From the NCBI RefSeq assembly GCF_003334355.1, contig NZ_QOWP01000014.1: DNA of 64,000 nucleotides. The stretch is one strand, 5' to 3'. The notes beneath the pieces were generated by a model that searched no databases, was not told the DNA's origin, and saw only the letters and a program-made list of their open reading frames with translations. A program made the translations under genes and the position numbers. Numbering within the stretch: the first letter of the stretch is position 1; each line of letters begins with the position of its first letter. Shown piece by piece: positions 2,993 through 42,412 of the stretch. Source of the stretch: Escherichia coli. Lineage in GTDB: Bacteria > Pseudomonadota > Gammaproteobacteria > Enterobacterales > Enterobacteriaceae.

Positions 2993-3015
2993 CATTTGTC
3001 TGATGCCGCACGTAG

Positions 3016-3211
3016 GCCTGATAAGACGCGGGCAGCGTCGCATCAGGCATCTTGTGCAAATGTCGGATGCGGCGTGAACGCCTTATCTGACCTACAAAAA
3101 CAAATTTATCAATGAGTTATAAATCCCTGTAGGCCTGATAAGACGCGCCAGCGTCGCATCAGGCATCGTGTGCGAATGTCAGATGCGGCGAAAACGCCTT
3201 ATCTGACATAC
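3016..3211. repeat. REP/BIME cluster of four REP copies in alternating orientation
   Basis: Copies of gcctgataagacgcg..cagcgtcgcatcaggc and gatgcggcg.aacgccttatctgac at 3016-3048, 3065-3095, 3133-3164 and 3182-3211. Confidence 0.85.
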
Positions 3212-3611: not shown

Positions 3612-3635
3612 AAAAAAGGCGCAGAATCCTGCGCC
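3612..3635 (-). terminator. Intrinsic terminator-like hairpin downstream of secA
   Basis: Minus-strand stem ggcgcag/ctgcgcc followed by a U-tract, immediately before the mutT start. Confidence 0.5.
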
Positions 3636-3656
3636 TTTTACTTTAACAGTTAGCTT

Positions 3657-6362
3657 TTATTGCAGGCGGCCATGGCACTGCTTGTATTTTTTACCAGAAC
3701 CGCACGGGCAAGGATCGTTACGTCCTACTTTGCGCTCTCCAGTTTGCGCCGCCAGTGCAGCTGCGGCTGCAGAGTCGTCATCCTGATGGCTAAGCTGCTG
3801 CATTTGCGCTAAACGCTCGGCTTCCATACGACGCTGTTGTTCCAGCTCCTCAACCTCTTCAGGCATACGTACCTGGACTTTGCTCAACGTGCTGATAACT
3901 TCATATTTTAACGACTCCAGCATCGCTGCAAACATGGAGAACGATTCACGTTTGTATTCCTGCTTCGGATCTTTCTGTGCGTAGCCACGCAGGTGGATAC
4001 CCTGACGCAGATAGTCCATCGCTGCCAGGTGCTCTTTCCACAGGGAGTCAAGCGTTTGCAGCATGACGCCTTTCTCGAAGTGACGCATCATCTCAGCACC
4101 AACCACTTCTTCTTTACGCTGATACACTTCGATGGACTGCGCCAGAATTCGCTCACGCAGCGTCTCTTCATGCAGTTCTGGTTCTTTATCCAGCCACTCG
4201 GCAATTGGCAAATCGAGGTCGAAATCGTTCTTCAGACGTTCCTGCAGCCCCGGAATATCCCACATTTCTTCCAGCGACTGTGGTGGAATGTAGGCATCAA
4301 TGGTCGCTTTGAACACATCTTCACGAATGCTGTTAATGGTTTCGCTCACATCGCTGACATCCAACAGTTCGTTACGCTGGGAGTAAATGGCGCGACGCTG
4401 ATCGTTAGCCACGTCATCATATTCCAGCAGTTGCTTACGAATGTCGAAGTTACGGCTTTCAACTTTACGCTGGGCGTTGGCAATCGCTTTAGTCACCCAC
4501 GGGTGTTCAATGGCTTCGCCTGGCTTCATACCCAGTTTACGCATCATGCCGGATACTCGGTCGGAAGCAAAAATACGCATCAGCGCATCTTCCATCGACA
4601 GGTAGAAACGGGAAGAACCAGCATCCCCCTGACGACCAGAACGACCGCGCAACTGGTTATCGATACGACGGGATTCGTGACGCTCGGTACCGATGATATG
4701 CAGGCCACCTGCTTCCAGTACCGCATCGTGACGTACCTGCCAGTCGGCTTTAATTTTTTCAATTTGCTCTGCGGTCGGATTTTCCAGCGCGGCAACTTCT
4801 GCCTGCCAGCTACCACCGAGCACAATATCTGTACCACGACCCGCCATATTGGTCGCGATAGTCACCGCAGCCGGATAACCTGCCTGAGCAACAATCGCCG
4901 CTTCGTTGGCGTGGAATTTGGCGTTCAGGACGTTGTGCTTAATACCGGCTTTGGTCAGTTCGTTTGACACCAGCTCCGATTTTTCGATGGAGATAGTACC
5001 CACCAGCACCGGCTGGCCTTTCGCAGTACGTTCTTTGATATCTTCAATGATCGCCTGAATTTTTTCCGCTTCAGTCATGTAGACCAGGTCCGGCAGATCT
5101 TTACGAATCATTGGACGGTTGGTCGGAACAACGACGGTATCCAGCTTGTAGATTGAGCTAAATTCGAAAGCTTCGGTATCAGCAGTACCGGTCATCCCCG
5201 CCAGTTTTTCATACAGACGGAAGTAGTTCTGGAAGGTGATCGAAGCCAGCGTTTGGTTTTCGTTCTGGATCTGCACACCTTCTTTCGCTTCCACAGCCTG
5301 GTGCAGACCATCGGACCAGCGACGGCCCTGCATGGTACGACCGGTGTGTTCGTCAACGATGATAACTTCACCATCTTTAACGATGTAGTCGACGTCACGG
5401 GTAAACAGCGCATGAGCGCGCAGCGCCGCCGTTACGTGGTGCATCAGCATGATGTTGGCCGGAGAGTACAGAGACTCCCCTTCATCCATGATGCCCTCTT
5501 TCACCAGCAGTTCTTCAATCAGCACCAGACCACGTTCGGTCAGGTTCACCTGGCGAGATTTTTCGTCCACCGAGAAGTGGCCTTCGCCCTGGAAGGTTTC
5601 GGAGTCTTCTTTTTCCTGACGGATCAGGTGCGGAATAATTTTATTCACGCGTTTATACATTTCCGAGCTGTCTTCTGCCGGGCCGGAAATGATCAGCGGT
5701 GTACGCGCTTCATCGATCAGGATGGAGTCCACTTCGTCCACCAGCGCATAGTGCAGTTTACGCTGTACACGTTCTTCAGGGCTGAACGCCATGTTGTCGC
5801 GCAGGTAGTCAAAGCCGTATTCGTTGTTCGTACCGTAAGTGATGTCAGCTGCGTAAGCTTCGCGCTTTGCCGGTGCTGGCATGCCCGGCAGGTTGATACC
5901 GACAGTCAGGCCAAGGAATTCAAACAGCGGACGGTTGTTTTCGGCGTCACGTTGCGCCAGGTAGTCGTTGACGGTAACTACGTGCACGCCTTTACCGGTT
6001 AGTGCGTTCAGGTAAGCAGGCAGCGTTGCGGTCAGGGTTTTACCTTCACCGGTACGCATTTCGGCGATGCAGCGTTCGTTAAGAACCATACCGCCGAGTA
6101 ACTGAACGTCGAAGTGACGCATACCAAAGACGCGCTTACTTGCCTCACGTACCACGGCGAAAGCTTCCGGGATCAGATTTTCCAGCACTTCGCCTTTTTC
6201 CAGACGTGCACGAAACTCTGCGGTTTTCCCTTTCAGTTCTTCGTCGGAGAGTTTTTCCATCTCCGGTTCCATGGCATTGATGATGTTGACCACTTTGCGC
6301 ATCCGGCGCAGGGTGCGATCGTTACGACTACCGAAAACTTTAGTTAATAATTTGATTAGCAT
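3657..6362 (-). CDS. secA: Preprotein translocase ATPase SecA
   Basis: 901-aa ORF; C-terminal zinc-binding [14 protein letters not shown]; recognised as E. coli SecA. Confidence 0.97.
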
Positions 6363-8184: not shown

Positions 8185-9336
8185 TTAATCAGCTTGCTTA
8201 CGCAGGAATGCTGGAATATCCAGATAATCCGGCTCTTTCGCAGTTTGCGGCGCATTGTCATTCACGACTTTAGCAATCGGCTTCTGCTCCTGGGTCAGCG
8301 GAGCCATCCCGTGCTGCTGGTAGCGATCCATCACTGGCTGCTGAACCTGCTTATTGGTCACCAGAGTGATTTCAGGACGTTTGTCCATGCCGATACCTGT
8401 CGCAACAACAGTTACGCGCAGCTCGTCATTCATATCCGGGTCAAGAGAAGTACCGATAACCACGGTCGCGTTGTCGGAAGCAAATGCACGGATGGTGTTA
8501 CCTACCGTTTCGAACTCATCCAGACGCAGGTCGAAGCCCGCTGTGATGTTAACCAGCACGCCGCGTGCGCCAGACAGGTCGATATCTTCCAGCAGCGGAG
8601 AAGAGATAGCCATTTCAGCAGCTTCTTCCGCACGGTCTTCACCGCTCGCCACGCCAGAACCCATCATTGCGTAGCCCATTTCAGACATTACGGTGCGTAC
8701 GTCTGCAAAGTCCACGTTCATCAAACCCGGACGAGTAATCAGTTCAGCGATACCTTGCACAGCGCCTTTCAGTACATCGTTCGCTGCGCCAAACGCATCC
8801 AGCAGGGAGATACCGCGGCCCAGAACTTTCAGCAGTTTGTCGTTCGGGATAGTGATCAGAGAGTCCACATGCTTGGACAGTTCAGTGATCCCCTGCTCCG
8901 CGAATGCCATACGCTTCTTGCCTTCAAAGTTGAAAGGCTTAGTGACGACAGCAACGGTCAGGATACCCAAATCTTTTGCCACTTCAGCGACGACTGGTGC
9001 TGCACCTGTACCGGTACCACCACCCATACCCGCAGCAATAAAGACCATGTCTGCACCTTCCAGCGCAGCACGCAATGCATCGCGATCCTCATCAGCCGCA
9101 TTGCGGCCAACTTCTGGATTAGCGCCAGCGCCCAGTCCTTTGGTGATACCGCTACCGATTTGAATCGTCTGTCCAACCGCTGTTTTACGCAGCGCTTGTG
9201 CATCGGTATTTACCGCGAAGAATTCAACACCTTCAATGCGCTCACGCACCATGTGTTCAACAGCATTACCGCCGCCGCCGCCGACGCCGATGACTTTAAT
9301 CACCGCGTCATTGGTAAGTTCCATTGGTTCAAACAT
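8185..9336 (-). CDS. ftsZ: Cell division GTPase FtsZ
   Basis: 383 aa; tubulin signature GGGTGTG; C-terminal [14 protein letters not shown]. Confidence 0.98.
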
Positions 9337-9396
9337 AGTTTCTCTCCGATTTGTGCCTGTCGCCTGAGGCCGTAATCATCGTCGGCCTCATAAAAA

Positions 9397-10659
9397 TTAA
9401 AACTCTTTTCGCAGCCAACTATTGAGTCGCTTGATCCACGAGCCAACTGATGCTGTAACACGTTTTTCTACTTCAGCTTCACCGTTAAGATGTGACTCTT
9501 TCCCATAGTGAAGCAATCCCACCGCCGTCGAATAATACGGCTCCTGAGCATAATCCGTTAAACCGGTAATGTTCAGCGGCGCGCCGATACGCACTTGCGT
9601 ATGAAACACGCGCTGAGCACAGGCTGCAAGACCTTCGATCTGCGCTGCGCCACCGGTTAATACAATGCCTGCCGCCAGGTGATGTTTAACCCCTTGTTGG
9701 CGAAGCTTTTCCTGCAACTGCAATATCTCTTCGTTGACCAGGTTGAGCAGCTCGGTATAGCGCGGCTCGATCACCTCTGCCAGGGTCTGACGTTGCAGAC
9801 TCCGCGGCGGACGACCACCTACGCTCGGCACTTCCACGCTCTCATCTTTTCCAACGATGGAACCCAGCGCACAACCGTGGCGAACTTTAATCGCTTCGGC
9901 GTCGCTTGGCGGCGTGCCAAAGGCGTAAGCGATATCACTGGTCACGACATTGCCAGCATAAGGAATTACCTTAGTGTGGCGCAATGCCCCACCGGTATAA
10001 ACGGCGATATCCATTGTACCACCACCGATATCGACGACGCAGACACCCAGTTCACGTTCATCTTCCGTCAATACCGAATAACTTGATGCCAGTCCGGCAA
10101 ATATCAGTTGGTCAACTTTCAGCCCACAACGTTCAACCGCTTTGACGATGTTTTTCGCCATATCGTTGTGACATGTGATCAGGTGCACTTTTGCCTGCAT
10201 CCGCACGCCCGAAAGTCCTACCGGATTCTTGATCCCTTCCTGATAGTCAATCGCATACTCTTGCGGGATCACATGCAGCACACGATGCTCATCGCGCACA
10301 CGCACCGATTTCGCGGTGTGGACGACGTTTTCCACATCTTCTTGCGTTACTTCTTCTTCAGAAATAGGCACCATACCAATTTCATTCTGGCAGCTGATGT
10401 GCTTACCAGAAAGCGCCAGATATACCGAAGAGATCTGACAATCTGCCATCAATTCTGCCTGGTCAATGGCGCGTTGTACGCACTTGACCACGGATTCGAG
10501 GTCGTTCACCCCGCCTTTATCCATACCACGCGACGGGCAGCTGCCCACGCCAATGATATTGACCATACCGTCGGGCAGAACTTCCCCTACTAAAGCGGCA
10601 ACCTTCGCGGTACCAATCTCCAGTCCTACTACCAGTTTTCTGTCCGTCGCCTTGATCAT
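9397..10659 (-). CDS. ftsA: Cell division protein FtsA (actin-like ATPase)
   Basis: 420 aa recognised as FtsA; start overlaps ftsQ stop. Confidence 0.97.
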
Positions 10660-30273: not shown

Positions 30274-30932
30274 ACTTAACTCCACTGTCACACTTAACTC
30301 CCTTTCCCTTATTGGAATGCAGAGAAATAATCCTCGAGAATATGATTTATCATGCATATAAAATAAGAAAAAGGAAAATGAGTAAAATTAGGAAAACATA
30401 AAGATACGGGTTCTGATAAAAACAGAATCCATTGCCGTGGAATGAGTCATTTACCACAGCATAATAATCCATAATGTTTTTGTTGCGAAAACAATCTAAT
30501 CATAACTACCGCGAATACTCAATCATCTACAAAATGGATTAAATGTGCTTATTTAATAATTAATTTATATATTTAATGCATTAATTCTTAACATTAATTG
30601 ATCAATAATATTCACCAAATCAATATCAAAAAAAATCGCAAAACATATAATTCAATACAAATCATCAGGATAGGTTTTGCAACGCGTGCATTTTGTCCCC
30701 TTTTTCCTCGTTGATTAGATGCAAAAATTTATGCTGAAATATGTCAACCGATGAAAAGCGTCGGTAGTTAAGCAGAAATTAATATCGCTTACTTTAACCA
30801 CCGCAGCACAATTAGCTAATTTTACGGATGCAGAACTCACGCTGGCGGGACGTTTTTATTGCGTCAGGGTTGACATCCGTTTTTGTATCCAGTAACTCTA
30901 AAAGCATATCGCATTCATCTGGAGCTGATTTA

Positions 30933-31019
30933 ATGACTCACATCGTTCGCTTTATCGGTCTACTACTACTAAACGCATCTTCTTTGCGCGGTAGACGAGT
31001 GAGCGGCATCCAGCATTAA
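30933..31019 (+). CDS. leuL: leu operon leader peptide
   Basis: 28-aa [28 protein letters not shown] with four consecutive CUA Leu codons. Confidence 0.9.
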
Positions 31020-31043
31020 GCCAGCACGCAGTCAAACAAAAAA

Positions 31044-31068
31044 CCCGCGCCATTGCGCGGGTTTTTTT
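31044..31068 (+). terminator. leu attenuator terminator
   Basis: Hairpin cccgcgc/gcgcggg followed by T7, between leuL and leuA. Confidence 0.85.
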
Positions 31069-37047: not shown

Positions 37048-37274
37048 AAAAAAAACCAGCAGGTATAATCTGCTGGCGGGTGATTTTACACCAATACTCA
37101 GTCACACATGATGCAGGCAAGTCAACTTTCAGAATTGCGGTCATCCCACTGCATCAGTCCTTCAAGCATGGTTAATCGTTGTGGGACGCTTAACCAACGC
37201 AACCAGCACAACTTCGCTGTCGCGGTAAAATAGTGCTGATAAAACTGACGCATGGGGCACCTCCTTGCTTCATC
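37048..37274 (-). ncRNA. sgrS: SgrS small RNA (glucose-phosphate stress), dual-function, with intrinsic terminator at its 3' end
   Basis: About 227 nt, divergent from sgrR; contains the sgrT ORF; 3' hairpin ccagcagattatacctgctgg followed by U8. Confidence 0.85.
37122..37253 (-). CDS. sgrT: SgrT small protein (glucose uptake inhibitor) encoded within SgrS
   Basis: 43 aa MRQFYQHYFTATAKLCWLRWLSVPQRLTMLEGLMQWDDRNSES. Confidence 0.85.
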   Translation of the reverse strand: MRQFYQHYFTATAKLCWLRWLSVPQRLTMLEGLMQWDDRNSES

Positions 37275-37341: not shown

Positions 37342-38997
37342 ATGCCATCTGCTCGTCTGCAACAACAGTTCATCCGCCTGTGGCAATGCTGCGAGGGTAA
37401 ATCGCAGGACACAACGCTCAACGAACTGGCAGCGTTATTGAGCTGCTCGCGTCGTCATATGCGTACCCTGCTCAACACCATGCAGGATCGCGGCTGGCTG
37501 ACGTGGGAAGCGGAAGTCGGGCGCGGTAAACGCTCGCGTCTGACATTCCTCTATACCGGGCTGGCGCTTCAGCAACAGCGGGCGGAAGACCTGCTGGAGC
37601 AGGATCGTATCGACCAACTAGTACAGTTGGTTGGCGACAAAGCGACTGTGCGGCAAATGCTGGTTTCTCATCTGGGCCGCAGCTTCCGCCAGGGGCGGCA
37701 CATCCTGCGCGTGCTCTACTATCGTCCGTTGCGTAATCTGCTACCTGGCAGCGCATTGCGCCGTTCCGAAACCCATATTGCCCGGCAAATCTTCAGTTCG
37801 CTAACGCGCATAAATGAGGAAAATGGGGAACTGGAAGCAGACATCGCCCACCACTGGCAGCAAATATCACCGCTTCACTGGCGTTTCTTTTTGCGTCCAG
37901 GAGTCCATTTTCATCATGGTCGTGAACTGGAAATGGACGACGTGATCGCCTCTTTAAAACGAATCAATACGCTGCCGCTCTATTCGCATATTGCTGACAT
38001 TGTGTCGCCGACGCCCTGGACGCTGGATATCCATCTCACGCAACCGGACCGCTGGTTACCGTTATTGCTGGGGCAAGTTCCGGCGATGATCCTGCCGCGC
38101 GAATGGGAAACCCTCAGTAACTTTGCCAGCCATCCCATCGGCACCGGTCCGTATGCGGTGATCCGCAACAGCACCAATCAACTGAAAATTCAGGCATTCG
38201 ATGACTTCTTCGGTTACCGGGCATTAATCGACGAAGTTAACGTCTGGGTTCTGCCGGAAATTGCCGACGAGCCAGCCGGAGGTCTGATGCTAAAAGGTCC
38301 ACAGGGCGAGGAAAAAGAGATTGAAAGCCGCCTGGAGGAAGGTTGCTACTATTTACTATTCGACAGCCGCACCCATCGCGGGGCGAATCAGCAAGTCAGG
38401 GACTGGGTAAGCTATGTGCTTTCTCCAACTAATCTGGTCTATTTCGCTGAGGAACAGTACCAGCAACTGTGGTTCCCGGCTTATGGACTGCTCCCCCGTT
38501 GGCACCATGCCCGCACCATAAAGAGCGAAAAACCGGCTGGTCTGGAAAGCCTCACCCTAACCTTTTATCAGGATCACAGTGAGCATCGGGTGATTGCCGG
38601 GATCATGCAGCAGATTCTGGCAAGTCACCAGGTCACGCTGGAAATCAAAGAGATCGACTACGATCAGTGGCATACAGGAGAGATCGAAAGTGATATCTGG
38701 CTAAACAGCGCCAACTTTACCCTGCCGCTGGACTTCTCTGTTTTCGCACATTTATGCGAAGTGCCACTGCTACAACATTGCATTCCCATTGACTGGCAAG
38801 CCGACGCTGCTCGCTGGCGCAATGGCGAGATGAATCTGGCGAACTGGTGCCAGCAACTGGTCGCCAGCAAAGCGATGGTGCCATTATTGCACCACTGGCT
38901 GATCATTCAGGGGCAACGCAGTATGCGCGGCCTGCGCATGAACACCCTCGGCTGGTTCGATTTTAAATCAGCGTGGTTTGCGCCACCGGATCCATGA
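37342..38997 (+). CDS. sgrR: Transcriptional regulator SgrR
   Basis: 551 aa from [15 protein letters not shown]; N-terminal HTH and solute-binding-like domain. Confidence 0.93.
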
Positions 38998-39029
38998 TTG
39001 CTGGTTGATAACAAAATCACTACACTAAC

Positions 39030-39125
39030 GCCGTTCTCAACGGGGTGCCACGCAAACGCGTGCGCTGAGAAAATACCCGTCGAACCTGATCCGGATAACG
39101 CCGGCGAAGGGATTTGAGGCTCCTT
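39030..39125 (+). promoter_or_regulatory. sroA: TPP (THI-box) riboswitch in the thiBPQ leader (sroA)
   Basis: Conserved elements ggggtgcc, ctgaga and aacctgatccggataacgccggcgaaggga directly upstream of thiB. Confidence 0.85.
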
Positions 39126-39160
39126 CTCAAGTCCTTTGCCACTCTTTTTTGAGGTGCAAA

Positions 39161-40144
39161 GTGTTAAAAAAATGTCTGCCCCTGCTGTTGCTGTGCACAG
39201 CGCCCGTTTTCGCTAAACCCGTTCTGACTGTTTATACCTACGATTCCTTCGCCGCCGACTGGGGGCCTGGTCCGGTGGTTAAAAAAGCCTTTGAAGCCGA
39301 CTGTAATTGCGAACTGAAACTGGTGGCGCTGGAAGATGGCGTTTCGCTTCTCAACCGTCTACGGATGGAAGGCAAAAACAGCAAAGCCGATGTAGTTCTG
39401 GGGCTGGATAACAACCTGTTAGACGCCGCCAGTAAAACCGGACTGTTTGCCAAAAGCGGCGTGGCAGCGGATGCCATTAACGTTCCCGGCGGCTGGAATA
39501 ATGACACTTTCGTACCGTTTGATTACGGCTACTTCGCCTTCGTCTACGACAAGAACAAACTGAAAAACCCGCCCCAAAGCCTGAAAGAGCTGGTTGAGAG
39601 CGATCAAAACTGGCGAGTGATTTATCAGGATCCGCGCACCAGTACGCCGGGGCTGGGTCTGCTGTTGTGGATGCAAAAAGTCTATGGCGATGACACCCCG
39701 CAGGCCTGGCAGAAACTGGCGAAGAAAACTGTCACCGTCACCAAAGGCTGGAGCGAAGCCTACGGCCTGTTTTTAAAAGGTGAAAGCGATCTGGTACTGA
39801 GTTACACCACCTCTCCGGCTTATCACATTCTCGAAGAGAAAAAAGATAACTACGCCGCCGCGAACTTTAGCGAAGGTCACTATCTGCAGGTGGAAGTCGC
39901 CGCCCGCACCGCTGCCAGCAAGCAGCCGGAGCTGGCGCAAAAATTTCTCCAGTTTATGGTTTCTCCGGCTTTCCAGAATGCGATCCCAACCGGCAACTGG
40001 ATGTATCCGGTGGCAAATGTCACGCTGCCTGCCGGGTTTGAACAATTGACCAAACCAGCAACCACGCTGGAGTTCACGCCAGCCGAAGTGGCGGCACAAC
40101 GTCAGGCATGGATTAGCGAATGGCAACGCGCCGTCAGCCGTTAA
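39161..40144 (+). CDS. thiB: Thiamine/TPP ABC transporter periplasmic binding protein
   Basis: 327 aa from GTG 39161 (MLKKCLPLLLLCTAPVFA signal peptide); the track ORF starts at an upstream TTG. Confidence 0.9.
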   Translation: MLKKCLPLLLLCTAPVFAKPVLTVYTYDSFAADWGPGPVVKKAFEADCNCELKLVALEDGVSLLNRLRMEGKNSKADVVLGLDNNLLDAASKTGLFAKSGVAADAINVPGGWNNDTFVPFDYGYFAFVYDKNKLKNPPQSLKELVESDQNWRVIYQDPRTSTPGLGLLLWMQKVYGDDTPQAWQKLAKKTVTVTKGWSEAYGLFLKGESDLVLSYTTSPAYHILEEKKDNYAAANFSEGHYLQVEVAARTAASKQPELAQKFLQFMVSPAFQNAIPTGNWMYPVANVTLPAGFEQLTKPATTLEFTPAEVAAQRQAWISEWQRAVSR

Positions 40145-41730
40145 TTCCCGGCTGGTTAATTCCAGGTGTAAGCGCCGCCACGCTGGTGGTAGCGGTTGCG
40201 CTCGCGGCGTTTCTCGCCCTGTGGTGGAACGCGCCGCAGGGTAACTGGGTGGCAATCTGGCAGGACAGCTACCTGTGGCATGTGGTGCGCTTCTCCTTCT
40301 GGCAGGCGTTTCTCTCGGCGCTGCTCTCTGTCGTACCCGCGATATTCCTCGCCCGCGCACTCTATCGCAGGCGCTTTCCGGGTCGGCTGGCGCTGTTGCG
40401 TCTGTGCGCAATGACCTTGATCCTCCCGGTGCTGGTTGCTGTTTTCGGCATTCTTAGCGTCTATGGTCGTCAGGGCTGGCTGGCATCGCTCTGCCAATCG
40501 CTCGGTCTGGAGTGGACCTTTTCGCCCTACGGCCTGCAAGGTATTTTGCTGGCGCACGTATTTTTTAATCTACCGATGGCGAGCCGCTTATTACTCCAGG
40601 CACTGGAAAACATTCCCGGCGAGCAACGTCAGCTTGCCGCCCAGCTTGGGATGCGCGGCTGGCATTTTTTCCGCTTCATCGAATGGCCGTGGCTACGGCG
40701 ACAAATCCCGCCGGTTGCCGCGCTTATCTTTATGCTCTGTTTCGCCAGCTTCGCCACCGTGCTGTCGCTGGGCGGCGGTCCGCAGGCAACCACTATCGAG
40801 CTGGCAATCTATCAGGCGCTGAGTTACGACTACGATCCTGCCCGCGCGGCGATGCTGGCGCTGATCCAGATGGTGTGTTGCCTCGGGTTGGTGCTGCTGA
40901 GTCAGCGATTGAGTAAGGCCATTGCGCCAGGCACCACGCTGCTGCAAGGCTGGCGCGACCCGGACGATCGTCTGCATAGCCGCATTTGCGACACGGTGTT
41001 AATTGTGCTGGCGCTGCTGCTGTTGCTGCCACCGTTGCTGGCGGTGATCGTCGATGGGCTAAATCGCCAGTTGCCGGAAGTGCTGGCACAACCGGTGCTG
41101 TGGCAGGCGCTGTGGACCTCGTTGCGTATTGCGCTGGCGGCAGGTGTATTGTGCGTAGTGCTGACCATGATGCTGCTATGGAGCAGTCGCGAACTTCGGG
41201 CGCGGCAGAAAATGCTGGCGGGTCAGGCGCTGGAGATGAGCGGCATGTTGATTCTCGCCATGCCGGGGATTGTGCTGGCTACCGGCTTCTTTTTACTGCT
41301 CAACAACACCATTGGCCTGCCGCAATCTGCTGACGGCATTGTGATTTTCACCAATGCGTTAATGGCGATCCCTTATGCGCTGAAAGTACTGGAAAACCCG
41401 ATGCGCGATATCACCGCCCGCTACAGTATGTTGTGTCAGTCGCTGGGCATTGAAGGCTGGTCGCGCTTAAAAGTGGTCGAGCTGCGCGCCCTGAAACGTC
41501 CACTGGCGCAGGCGCTGGCTTTTGCCTGCGTGCTGTCGATTGGTGATTTTGGCGTAGTGGCGTTGTTCGGTAACGATGATTTCCGTACCCTGCCGTTTTA
41601 TCTCTACCAGCAAATTGGCTCCTATCGCAGCCAGGACGGTGCGGTCACCGCGTTAATTCTGCTACTACTCTGTTTTCTGCTGTTTACCGTGATTGAAAAA
41701 CTACCGGGGCGAAATGTTAAAACTGACTGA
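40120..41730 (+). CDS. thiP: Thiamine ABC transporter permease
   Basis: 536-aa double-permease protein; overlaps the thiB 3' end by 25 nt. Confidence 0.93.
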
Positions 41731-42412
41731 TATCACCTGGCTTTATCACCATTTGCCGATGCGTTTTAGCTTAACGGTAGAACGCGGCGAGCAGGTGGCA
41801 ATCCTCGGGCCAAGCGGCGCGGGTAAAAGTACCCTGCTGAATTTGATCGCCGGTTTTCTGACGCCAGCCAGCGGTTCGCTGACTATCGACGGCGTTGATC
41901 ACACCACGACGCCGCCGTCACGCCGTCCGGTGTCGATGCTGTTTCAGGAAAACAACCTGTTCAGTCACCTGACGGTCGCGCAGAACATCGGGCTGGGGCT
42001 AAATCCGGGATTGAAACTGAACGCGGCACAGCAGGAGAAAATGCACGCTATCGCCCGCCAGATGGGGATTGATAATTTAATGGCGCGGTTACCTGGCGAG
42101 CTTTCCGGCGGTCAGCGACAGCGAGTGGCGTTAGCACGTTGTCTGGTACGCGAACAGCCGATTTTATTGCTCGATGAACCGTTCTCTGCGCTCGATCCGG
42201 CACTACGCCAGGAGATGTTGACGCTGGTGAGCACGAGCTGCCAGCAGCAAAAAATGACGTTATTGATGGTGTCACACAGTGTGGAAGATGCCGCGCGGAT
42301 CGCCACGCGCTCGGTGGTGGTCGCCGACGGGCGCATCGCCTGGCAGGGTAAGACCAATGAGTTGTTGAGCGGTAAGGCGAGTGCTTCAGCACTATTGGGG
42401 ATTACGGGTTAG
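41714..42412 (+). CDS. thiQ: Thiamine ABC transporter ATP-binding protein
   Basis: 232 aa from [11 protein letters not shown]; Walker [10 protein letters not shown] and signature LSGGQRQR. Confidence 0.94.

Follow-up and report, generated by a model that had tools for sequence, protein, structure and literature searches.

The leader of thiB (tbpA) in Escherichia coli K-12 carries a TPP riboswitch that has been dissected experimentally (SroA; PMC10578472, PMC11487190, PMC8609307). In this leader TPP represses reporters and also lowers the 30S toeprint (PMC10578472, PMC11487190). Cotranscriptional SHAPE and mutagenesis support an anti-P1, or antisequestering, stem, and altering the strength of either P1 or that stem biases the switch as predicted (PMC10578472). 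In the same study, deletion of linker nucleotides 95-99 (39125-39129 in the numbering used here) locked the switch OFF, and a mutant with a weakened sequestering stem lost its response to TPP. The published work is less uniform on control at the RNA level by Rho. One paper found no effect of bicyclomycin in a construct with 4 codons of the gene (PMC10578472), whereas the other found a drop in mRNA with 11 codons (PMC11487190).

The DNA analysed in this study is a stretch of 64,000 nucleotides from an E. coli contig (NZ_QOWP01000014.1), referred to here as the window, and it contains the same locus. The element found there is the E. coli thiB (tbpA) TPP riboswitch, which is already annotated in RefSeq, so there is nothing new at the locus as such. 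When complete E. coli genomes were compared, positions 38900-39500 were 100% identical to strain ATCC 8739 (where adding 35399 to a coordinate gives that of the window) and 95-99% identical to most of the 5,400 genomes. Over 38991-39200 the K-12 MG1655 leader differs from the window only at 39054-39055 in the loop of P3, where the window has AA and K-12 has GT. The Shine-Dalgarno (SD) sequence, the TTG and GTG codons, the linker and the sequestering strands are all identical. Because these two loop bases are the only difference, the experiments of PMC11487190 apply to the sequence of the window. The GT in the apical loop of K-12 P3 produces a longer palindromic hairpin, CACGCGUACGCGUG.

An earlier note on this DNA, written from the sequence alone, had recognized THI-box elements at 39030-39125. 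The Rfam search bears this out, with a match to RF00059 (TPP) at 39031-39130 on the + strand that covers the full length of the model (positions 1-105). Its score of 66.1 bits exceeds the gathering score of 54.3, and its E-value is 8.4e-12 when 6 kb are searched and 8.9e-11 for the whole window. When the consensus pairs of the model were mapped onto the sequence, 22 of the 23 were standard pairs. RefSeq also has a TPP riboswitch at the identical coordinates in ATCC 8739. The pair map places P1 at 39036-39040 with 39114-39118, P2/P3 at 39041-39079 and P4/P5 at 39085-39110, all on the + strand. The conserved CUGAGA is at 39065-39070 and the core ACCUGAUC..GG.UAA..CC.GCG is at 39083-39106. The distal part of P3 in the RF00059 model is missing (10 gap columns). 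With thiB 31 nt downstream of it on the + strand, the aptamer belongs to the 5' leader of a gene for thiamine transport.

The transcription start of this leader is marked by the 5' end of SroA, a stable 93-nt 5' fragment that lies at 39033-39125 (+) when mapped from the K-12 ncRNA sroA (b4762, 75516-75608, minus strand). Taking G39033 as +1 gives a thiBPQ leader of 128 nt. This can be checked against the numbering of PMC11487190, in which G121 becomes 39153, G129 U130 G131 become 39161-39163 and C144 becomes 39176; the published bases G121, G129, U130 and C144 all fall on matching bases in the window. A probable sigma-70 promoter for thiBPQ lies at 38998-39026 (+), with a -35 hexamer TTGCTG at 38998-39003, a 17-nt spacer and a -10 hexamer TACACT at 39021-39026. 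These hexamers were chosen by eye and by how they are placed with respect to the annotated 5' end (39033), which is weak evidence. A consensus promoter scan of 38700-39300 reported no match, and the candidate was missed because only 7 of its 12 consensus positions match. The stop codon of sgrR is at 38995-38997, and the putative promoter overlaps the end of that gene.

The best explanation of the locus, and one that is almost certainly correct, is that the thiB TPP riboswitch is a translational OFF switch in the 128-nt thiBPQ leader, with initiation at GTG 39161 and with the upstream TTG unused. When TPP is bound, the aptamer would close through P1 and P4/P5. CUUUGCC (39134-39140) would then be available for pairing with 39153-39161 (the SD, the spacer and the start codon's first G), a fold to which the 30S subunit could not bind. 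When TPP is absent, the linker UCUCAAG (39125-39131) would invade the 3' strand of P1, and the stem would then extend so that CCUUUGCC (39133-39140) pairs with GGCGAAGG (39103-39110) of the aptamer. Since this anti-P1 stem would use up the sequestering strand, GAGGU (39151-39155) and GUG (39161) would be exposed. Initiation at the GTG would give a precursor of 327 aa, and its signal-peptide-like first 18 residues would be removed on export. Reduced translation would also be expected to lower the level of the mRNA, in keeping with the published Rho termination score of 3.0 for thiB (ChIP-qPCR).

The two modelled states correspond to the "sequestering stem" and "antisequestering stem" of PMC10578472. 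The SD-sequestering hairpin of the TPP-bound OFF state spans 39134-39161 (+) and was obtained by folding with the aptamer enforced. In it CUUUGC (39134-39139) is predicted to pair with GCAAAG (39156-39161), and the hairpin can be continued either by A39141-U39143 with G39153-U39155 or by CUC (39142-39144) with GAG (39151-39153). Under this constraint 39151-39153 and 39156-39161, which are bases of the SD and the start codon, were paired with an unpaired probability of about 0. The anti-P1 stem of the ligand-free ON state spans 39103-39140 (+). Its upper part joins 39113-39119 with 39125-39131 (UUUGAGG:UCUCAAG). Its lower part, 39103-39110 with 39133-39140 (GGCGAAGG:CCUUUGCC), was placed by sequence complementarity, and we infer the exact register of the extended stem. 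UUUGAGG holds the 3' strand of P1, and GGCGAAGG is the 3' strand of P4/P5. If the extended stem forms, none of P1, P4/P5 and the sequestering hairpin can thus form. The earlier note had proposed that the riboswitch probably sequesters the ribosome-binding site. The aptamer-enforced folding, the conserved pairing potential described below, and the published mutants and toeprint all agree with that proposal, and the hairpin additionally covers the first G of the GUG.

One caveat is that nearest-neighbour folding alone fails to reproduce the switch. In the unconstrained minimum free energy structure (-48.4 kcal/mol) a short anti-P1 stem coexists with the SD hairpin, and the extended anti-P1 state (modelled at -47.2 kcal/mol) is less favourable by 1.2 kcal/mol. 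The SD is also predicted to be mostly paired in the free ensemble. Because the SD hairpin is present in both folded states and folding does not separate ON from OFF, the ON state rests on the published probing and mutants. The folding result agrees with published work, which concluded that TPP is sensed most efficiently during transcription. RNA polymerase pauses have been reported in the tbpA leader at 104, 117 and 136, which correspond to 39136, 39149 and 39168. The second of these coincides with the first T in the unused TTG; the third is 7 nt into the coding sequence. The 3' end of SroA (39125) is in the loop of the anti-P1 hairpin.

The comparative data came from a pattern scan of the genomes of 100,044 species for the short-P3 form of the aptamer, which returned 120 loci. 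In 29 of them, all from Enterobacterales, a ThiB orthologue (65-93% identity) was directly downstream, and with the window these made a set of 30 leaders. An Escherichia albertii locus was left out because its sequence ends just after the aptamer. Aptamers in which 4 nt separate CUGAGA from ACCC are also widespread beyond the Enterobacterales (many Bacteroidota and Pontibacter have them), and there they precede genes other than thiB. A distant ThiB-like gene (35% identity) was downstream outside Enterobacterales at only two loci, one in Hydrogenispora and one in a member of the Bacillota.

CCTTTGCC and GCAAAG were invariant in all 30 leaders, while the loops between them varied in both sequence and length. 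The six lower pairs of the sequestering hairpin were invariant in 29 of 29 distinct leaders. Across these 29 leaders pairing was kept in 96% of cells for the OFF set (P4/P5 plus the sequestering hairpin) and in 92% for the ON anti-P1 stem, compared to 35-64% for slid partners (41-64% for the anti-P1 stem alone), though this control is biased in favour of the helices, which were defined on the E. coli sequence. In covariation tests, neither the sequestering hairpin nor the anti-P1 stem rose above column shuffles, because most of the paired columns never vary. The only two-sided changes of note were at the pair 39141:39155, which is A-U in the window and G-C in Dickeya and Acerihabitans. As far as these alignments go, the comparative data support a conserved potential for pairing and not covariation.

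A terminator scan of 38700-39300 found no site resembling an intrinsic terminator, and transcription in vitro with TPP gave only the full-length product (PMC10578472). Neither result favors the reading in which the element acts mainly on transcription or at the RNA level, through Rho termination or RNase E, and not on translation initiation. Support for that reading comes from the Rho termination score given above and from transcriptional fusions that TPP represses about 2.4-fold even when the start codon is mutated (PMC11487190). However, bicyclomycin does not relieve repression in the short construct of 4 codons (PMC10578472), and a mutant of the SD abolishes RNA-level regulation (PMC11487190), which means that such regulation depends on ribosome binding. 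The same dependence is seen in transcriptional fusions that include 11 codons, where TPP represses and mRNA drops provided that the SD is intact (PMC11487190). A primarily RNA-level mode of action is therefore very unlikely. Control at the RNA level is best seen as a secondary layer on translational control and not as its rival, though the two experimental papers contradict each other as to its existence. Other roles for the pieces of this leader, either SroA acting in trans as a small RNA or the pause at 117 (U39149) allowing rare UUG initiation during the cotranscriptional decision window, are highly improbable.

The remaining alternatives to translational control from GTG 39161 concern the start codon. 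As the earlier note had observed, the list of open reading frames starts thiB at the in-frame TTG at 39149-39151 (+), which gives a protein of 331 aa (MRCKVLKK...). Starts in that list are simply the first ATG, GTG or TTG to follow a stop, which in the thiB frame is the TAA at 39026-39028. The TTG is a mechanical start and not an initiation codon. The note had itself preferred the GTG at 39161-39163 (+), with its typical signal peptide MLKKCLPLLLL and a length of 327 aa. Translation from this GTG does give (M)LKKCLPLLLLCTAPVFAKP..., 327 aa, ending at 40144, and RefSeq uses the GTG, with a coding sequence of 984 nt, in both ATCC 8739 (39161-40144) and K-12 MG1655. The SD, GAGGU at 39151-39155 (+), is 5 nt upstream of the GTG and forms an anti-SD duplex of -6.9 kcal/mol, whereas the 20 nt that precede the TTG give -0.1 kcal/mol (no SD). 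A start at the TTG is also disfavoured because UUG codons generally initiate weakly. The last base of the TTG (G39151) is the first base of the SD GAGG. Since the only SD present lies downstream of 39149, a 30S subunit docked on GAGG (39151-39154) cannot place 39149 in the P site.

The comparison across Enterobacterales leads to the same conclusion. GCAAAGTG, with the GG of the SD upstream of it, was invariant in 30 of 30 leaders, and the GTG is thus found in every one. G39154 was invariant as well, and G39151 nearly so. The codon at the position of the TTG (-12 relative to the GTG) was much more variable: TTG in 10 leaders, CAG in 6, CTG in 5, AAG in 3, AGG in 2, and ATG, GAA, TAA and TAG in 1 each. 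It was therefore a start-type codon in 11 of the 30, a stop codon in 2 (TAA in Kluyvera and TAG in Enterobacteriaceae RIT691) and some other non-start codon in 17. Its third base is the only one in that codon that is conserved, because it is part of the SD. In Photorhabdus and Enterobacter R1 there is an in-frame stop 18 nt upstream of the GTG. Taken together, the stops and non-start codons at -12 and the stops at -18 leave the GTG as the sole start common to the family. A heuristic that chose the start with the best SD had selected a TTG inside the 3' strand of P1 in Edwardsiella ictaluri and Siccibacter; anchoring on GCAAAGTG finds the conserved GTG there too. In one leader from Brenneria and two from Pectobacterium some 12 extra codons (VLNQLLQRSAIV... 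or VLNTSLLKRSAAM...) separate the conserved SD and GTG from a second signal-peptide-like start (LKK or LKT). This may reflect a real ambiguity of the start site in those species, or a longer n-region.

Published experiments on the K-12 leader addressed the choice directly. The mutation U130A, which changes GUG to GAG (39162), left a translational lacZ fusion barely detectable (PMC11487190). Because this mutant keeps the in-frame UUG, its near-zero activity is a direct test of initiation at the TTG. The SD mutant G121C (39153) had low expression and no response to TPP, and the toeprint of 30S and tRNA-fMet was at C144 (39176), which is +15 from G129 and was about 2.2-fold lower with TPP (PMC11487190). 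Initiation at TTG 39149, the result that the earlier note had said would overturn its choice, has thus effectively been tested, with the U130A fusion barely detectable and no toeprint reported at +15 from the UUG. thiB initiates at GTG 39161, and every line of evidence that was checked (translation, RefSeq, SD energetics, the comparison of 30 genera, and published mutagenesis and toeprinting) points to the GTG.

It is extremely improbable that both codons are used, with the GTG as the major start and the TTG as a minor one from which a little of a longer precursor is made, perhaps in certain conditions. The barely detectable activity of the U130A fusion is not zero (PMC11487190), and the published pause at 117 coincides with U39149, but the placement of the SD downstream of the TTG and the lack of conservation at the TTG position both argue against a dual start. 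In addition, cleavage of the signal peptide, if it occurs, would turn both products into one and the same mature protein, and selection would then have nothing to act on. Use of the TTG as the only start, with a precursor of 331 aa, has next to no probability and is already largely refuted, for although the TTG is in frame, comes first among the start-type codons that follow the upstream stop, aligns with a start-type codon in 11 of 30 genera and would add an MRCK whose positive charge in the n-region is compatible with export, it has no SD, is not used by RefSeq, is replaced by a stop in two genera and by a non-start codon in 17 others, is cut off by a -18 stop in two genera, supports barely any expression when the GUG is changed to GAG, and lacks a reported toeprint near position 132 (PMC11487190).

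With the start at the GTG, thiB (tbpA) occupies 39161-40144 (+) and encodes the periplasmic thiamine/TPP-binding protein of 327 aa. The protein matches PDB 2qry, "Thiamine-binding periplasmic protein" (E 5e-211), with residues 18-327 aligned to 2qry_A. Three amino-acid substitutions separate the ThiB of the window from the crystallised K-12 protein, whose construct in 2qry has K19 as its first residue. The N-terminus has K3 K4, then LPLLLLCTAPVFA, then KP, with a hydrophobic core and VFA before K19, and this layout is kept in 30 of 30 orthologues. Judging from the amino-acid sequence, residues 1-18 (39161-39214) are a probable Sec signal peptide, with the mature protein starting at K19. Cleavage of this peptide is presumably what the UniProt entry for ThiB records. 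If it is cleaved, starts at the TTG and the GTG give the same mature protein, and N-terminal proteomics would probably not discriminate between them.

The gene order around the element is setA, sgrT/SgrS, sgrR, riboswitch, thiB, thiP, thiQ and yabI. The operon continues with the permease gene thiP at 40120-41730 (+) and the ATPase gene thiQ at 41714-42412 (+), coordinates that come from the list of open reading frames and from what RefSeq annotates on the identical sequence of ATCC 8739. The last 25 nt of thiB (40120-40144) are shared with thiP, and the last 17 nt of thiP (41714-41730) with thiQ. These overlaps suggest translational coupling, through which riboswitch control of thiB initiation may spread down the operon. 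The list of open reading frames starts sgrR at TTG 37321 (to 38997) and thiQ at TTG 41693, and in both cases RefSeq uses an ATG seven codons later, at 37342 and 41714. Calling the first start codon after a stop therefore makes thiB four codons too long, and sgrR and thiQ seven each. The position of the SD and conservation across genera quickly settle such cases, though their importance goes little beyond annotation hygiene.

Other RNA elements were found in the window as well. The SgrS sRNA is at 37048-37274 (-), divergent from sgrR, as a full-length Rfam match of 230.7 bits, and the small sgrT reading frame is annotated within it at about 37122-37253 (-). A leucine operon leader (Leu_leader, Rfam, 145.8 bits) at 30919-31068 (+) is consistent with the leu operon being upstream of setA and sgrR. 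A full-length match of 105.5 bits to PssrA ("Plasmid-encoded Shigella sRNA A") at 9328-9417 (-) lies in what is apparently chromosomal E. coli sequence and may be part of an insertion sequence or other mobile element. Four matches to naRNA4 (CssrE), at 3015-3092, 3132-3208, 47966-48031 and 54977-55055, are probably repetitive extragenic elements. There was also one match to STnc40, at 3612-3681.

Beyond the K-12 leader itself, the closest comparisons are with the other TPP riboswitches of E. coli. The thiM riboswitch resembles that of thiB in its aptamer class, in the sequestration of the SD and start codon when TPP binds, and in a secondary effect of Rho inside the open reading frame. However, the two differ in their expression platforms and in the genes they control, which are a salvage kinase in the case of thiM and a transporter in the case of thiB, and the thiB aptamer is without the distal part of P3 (the 10-column gap in the Rfam model). 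The thiC riboswitch is likewise responsive to TPP and has an anti-P1 stem and a regulatory pause near the start codon. It is a larger element, with its Rho site inside the riboswitch itself, whereas the effect of the thiB riboswitch at the RNA level needs part of the coding region (PMC11487190).
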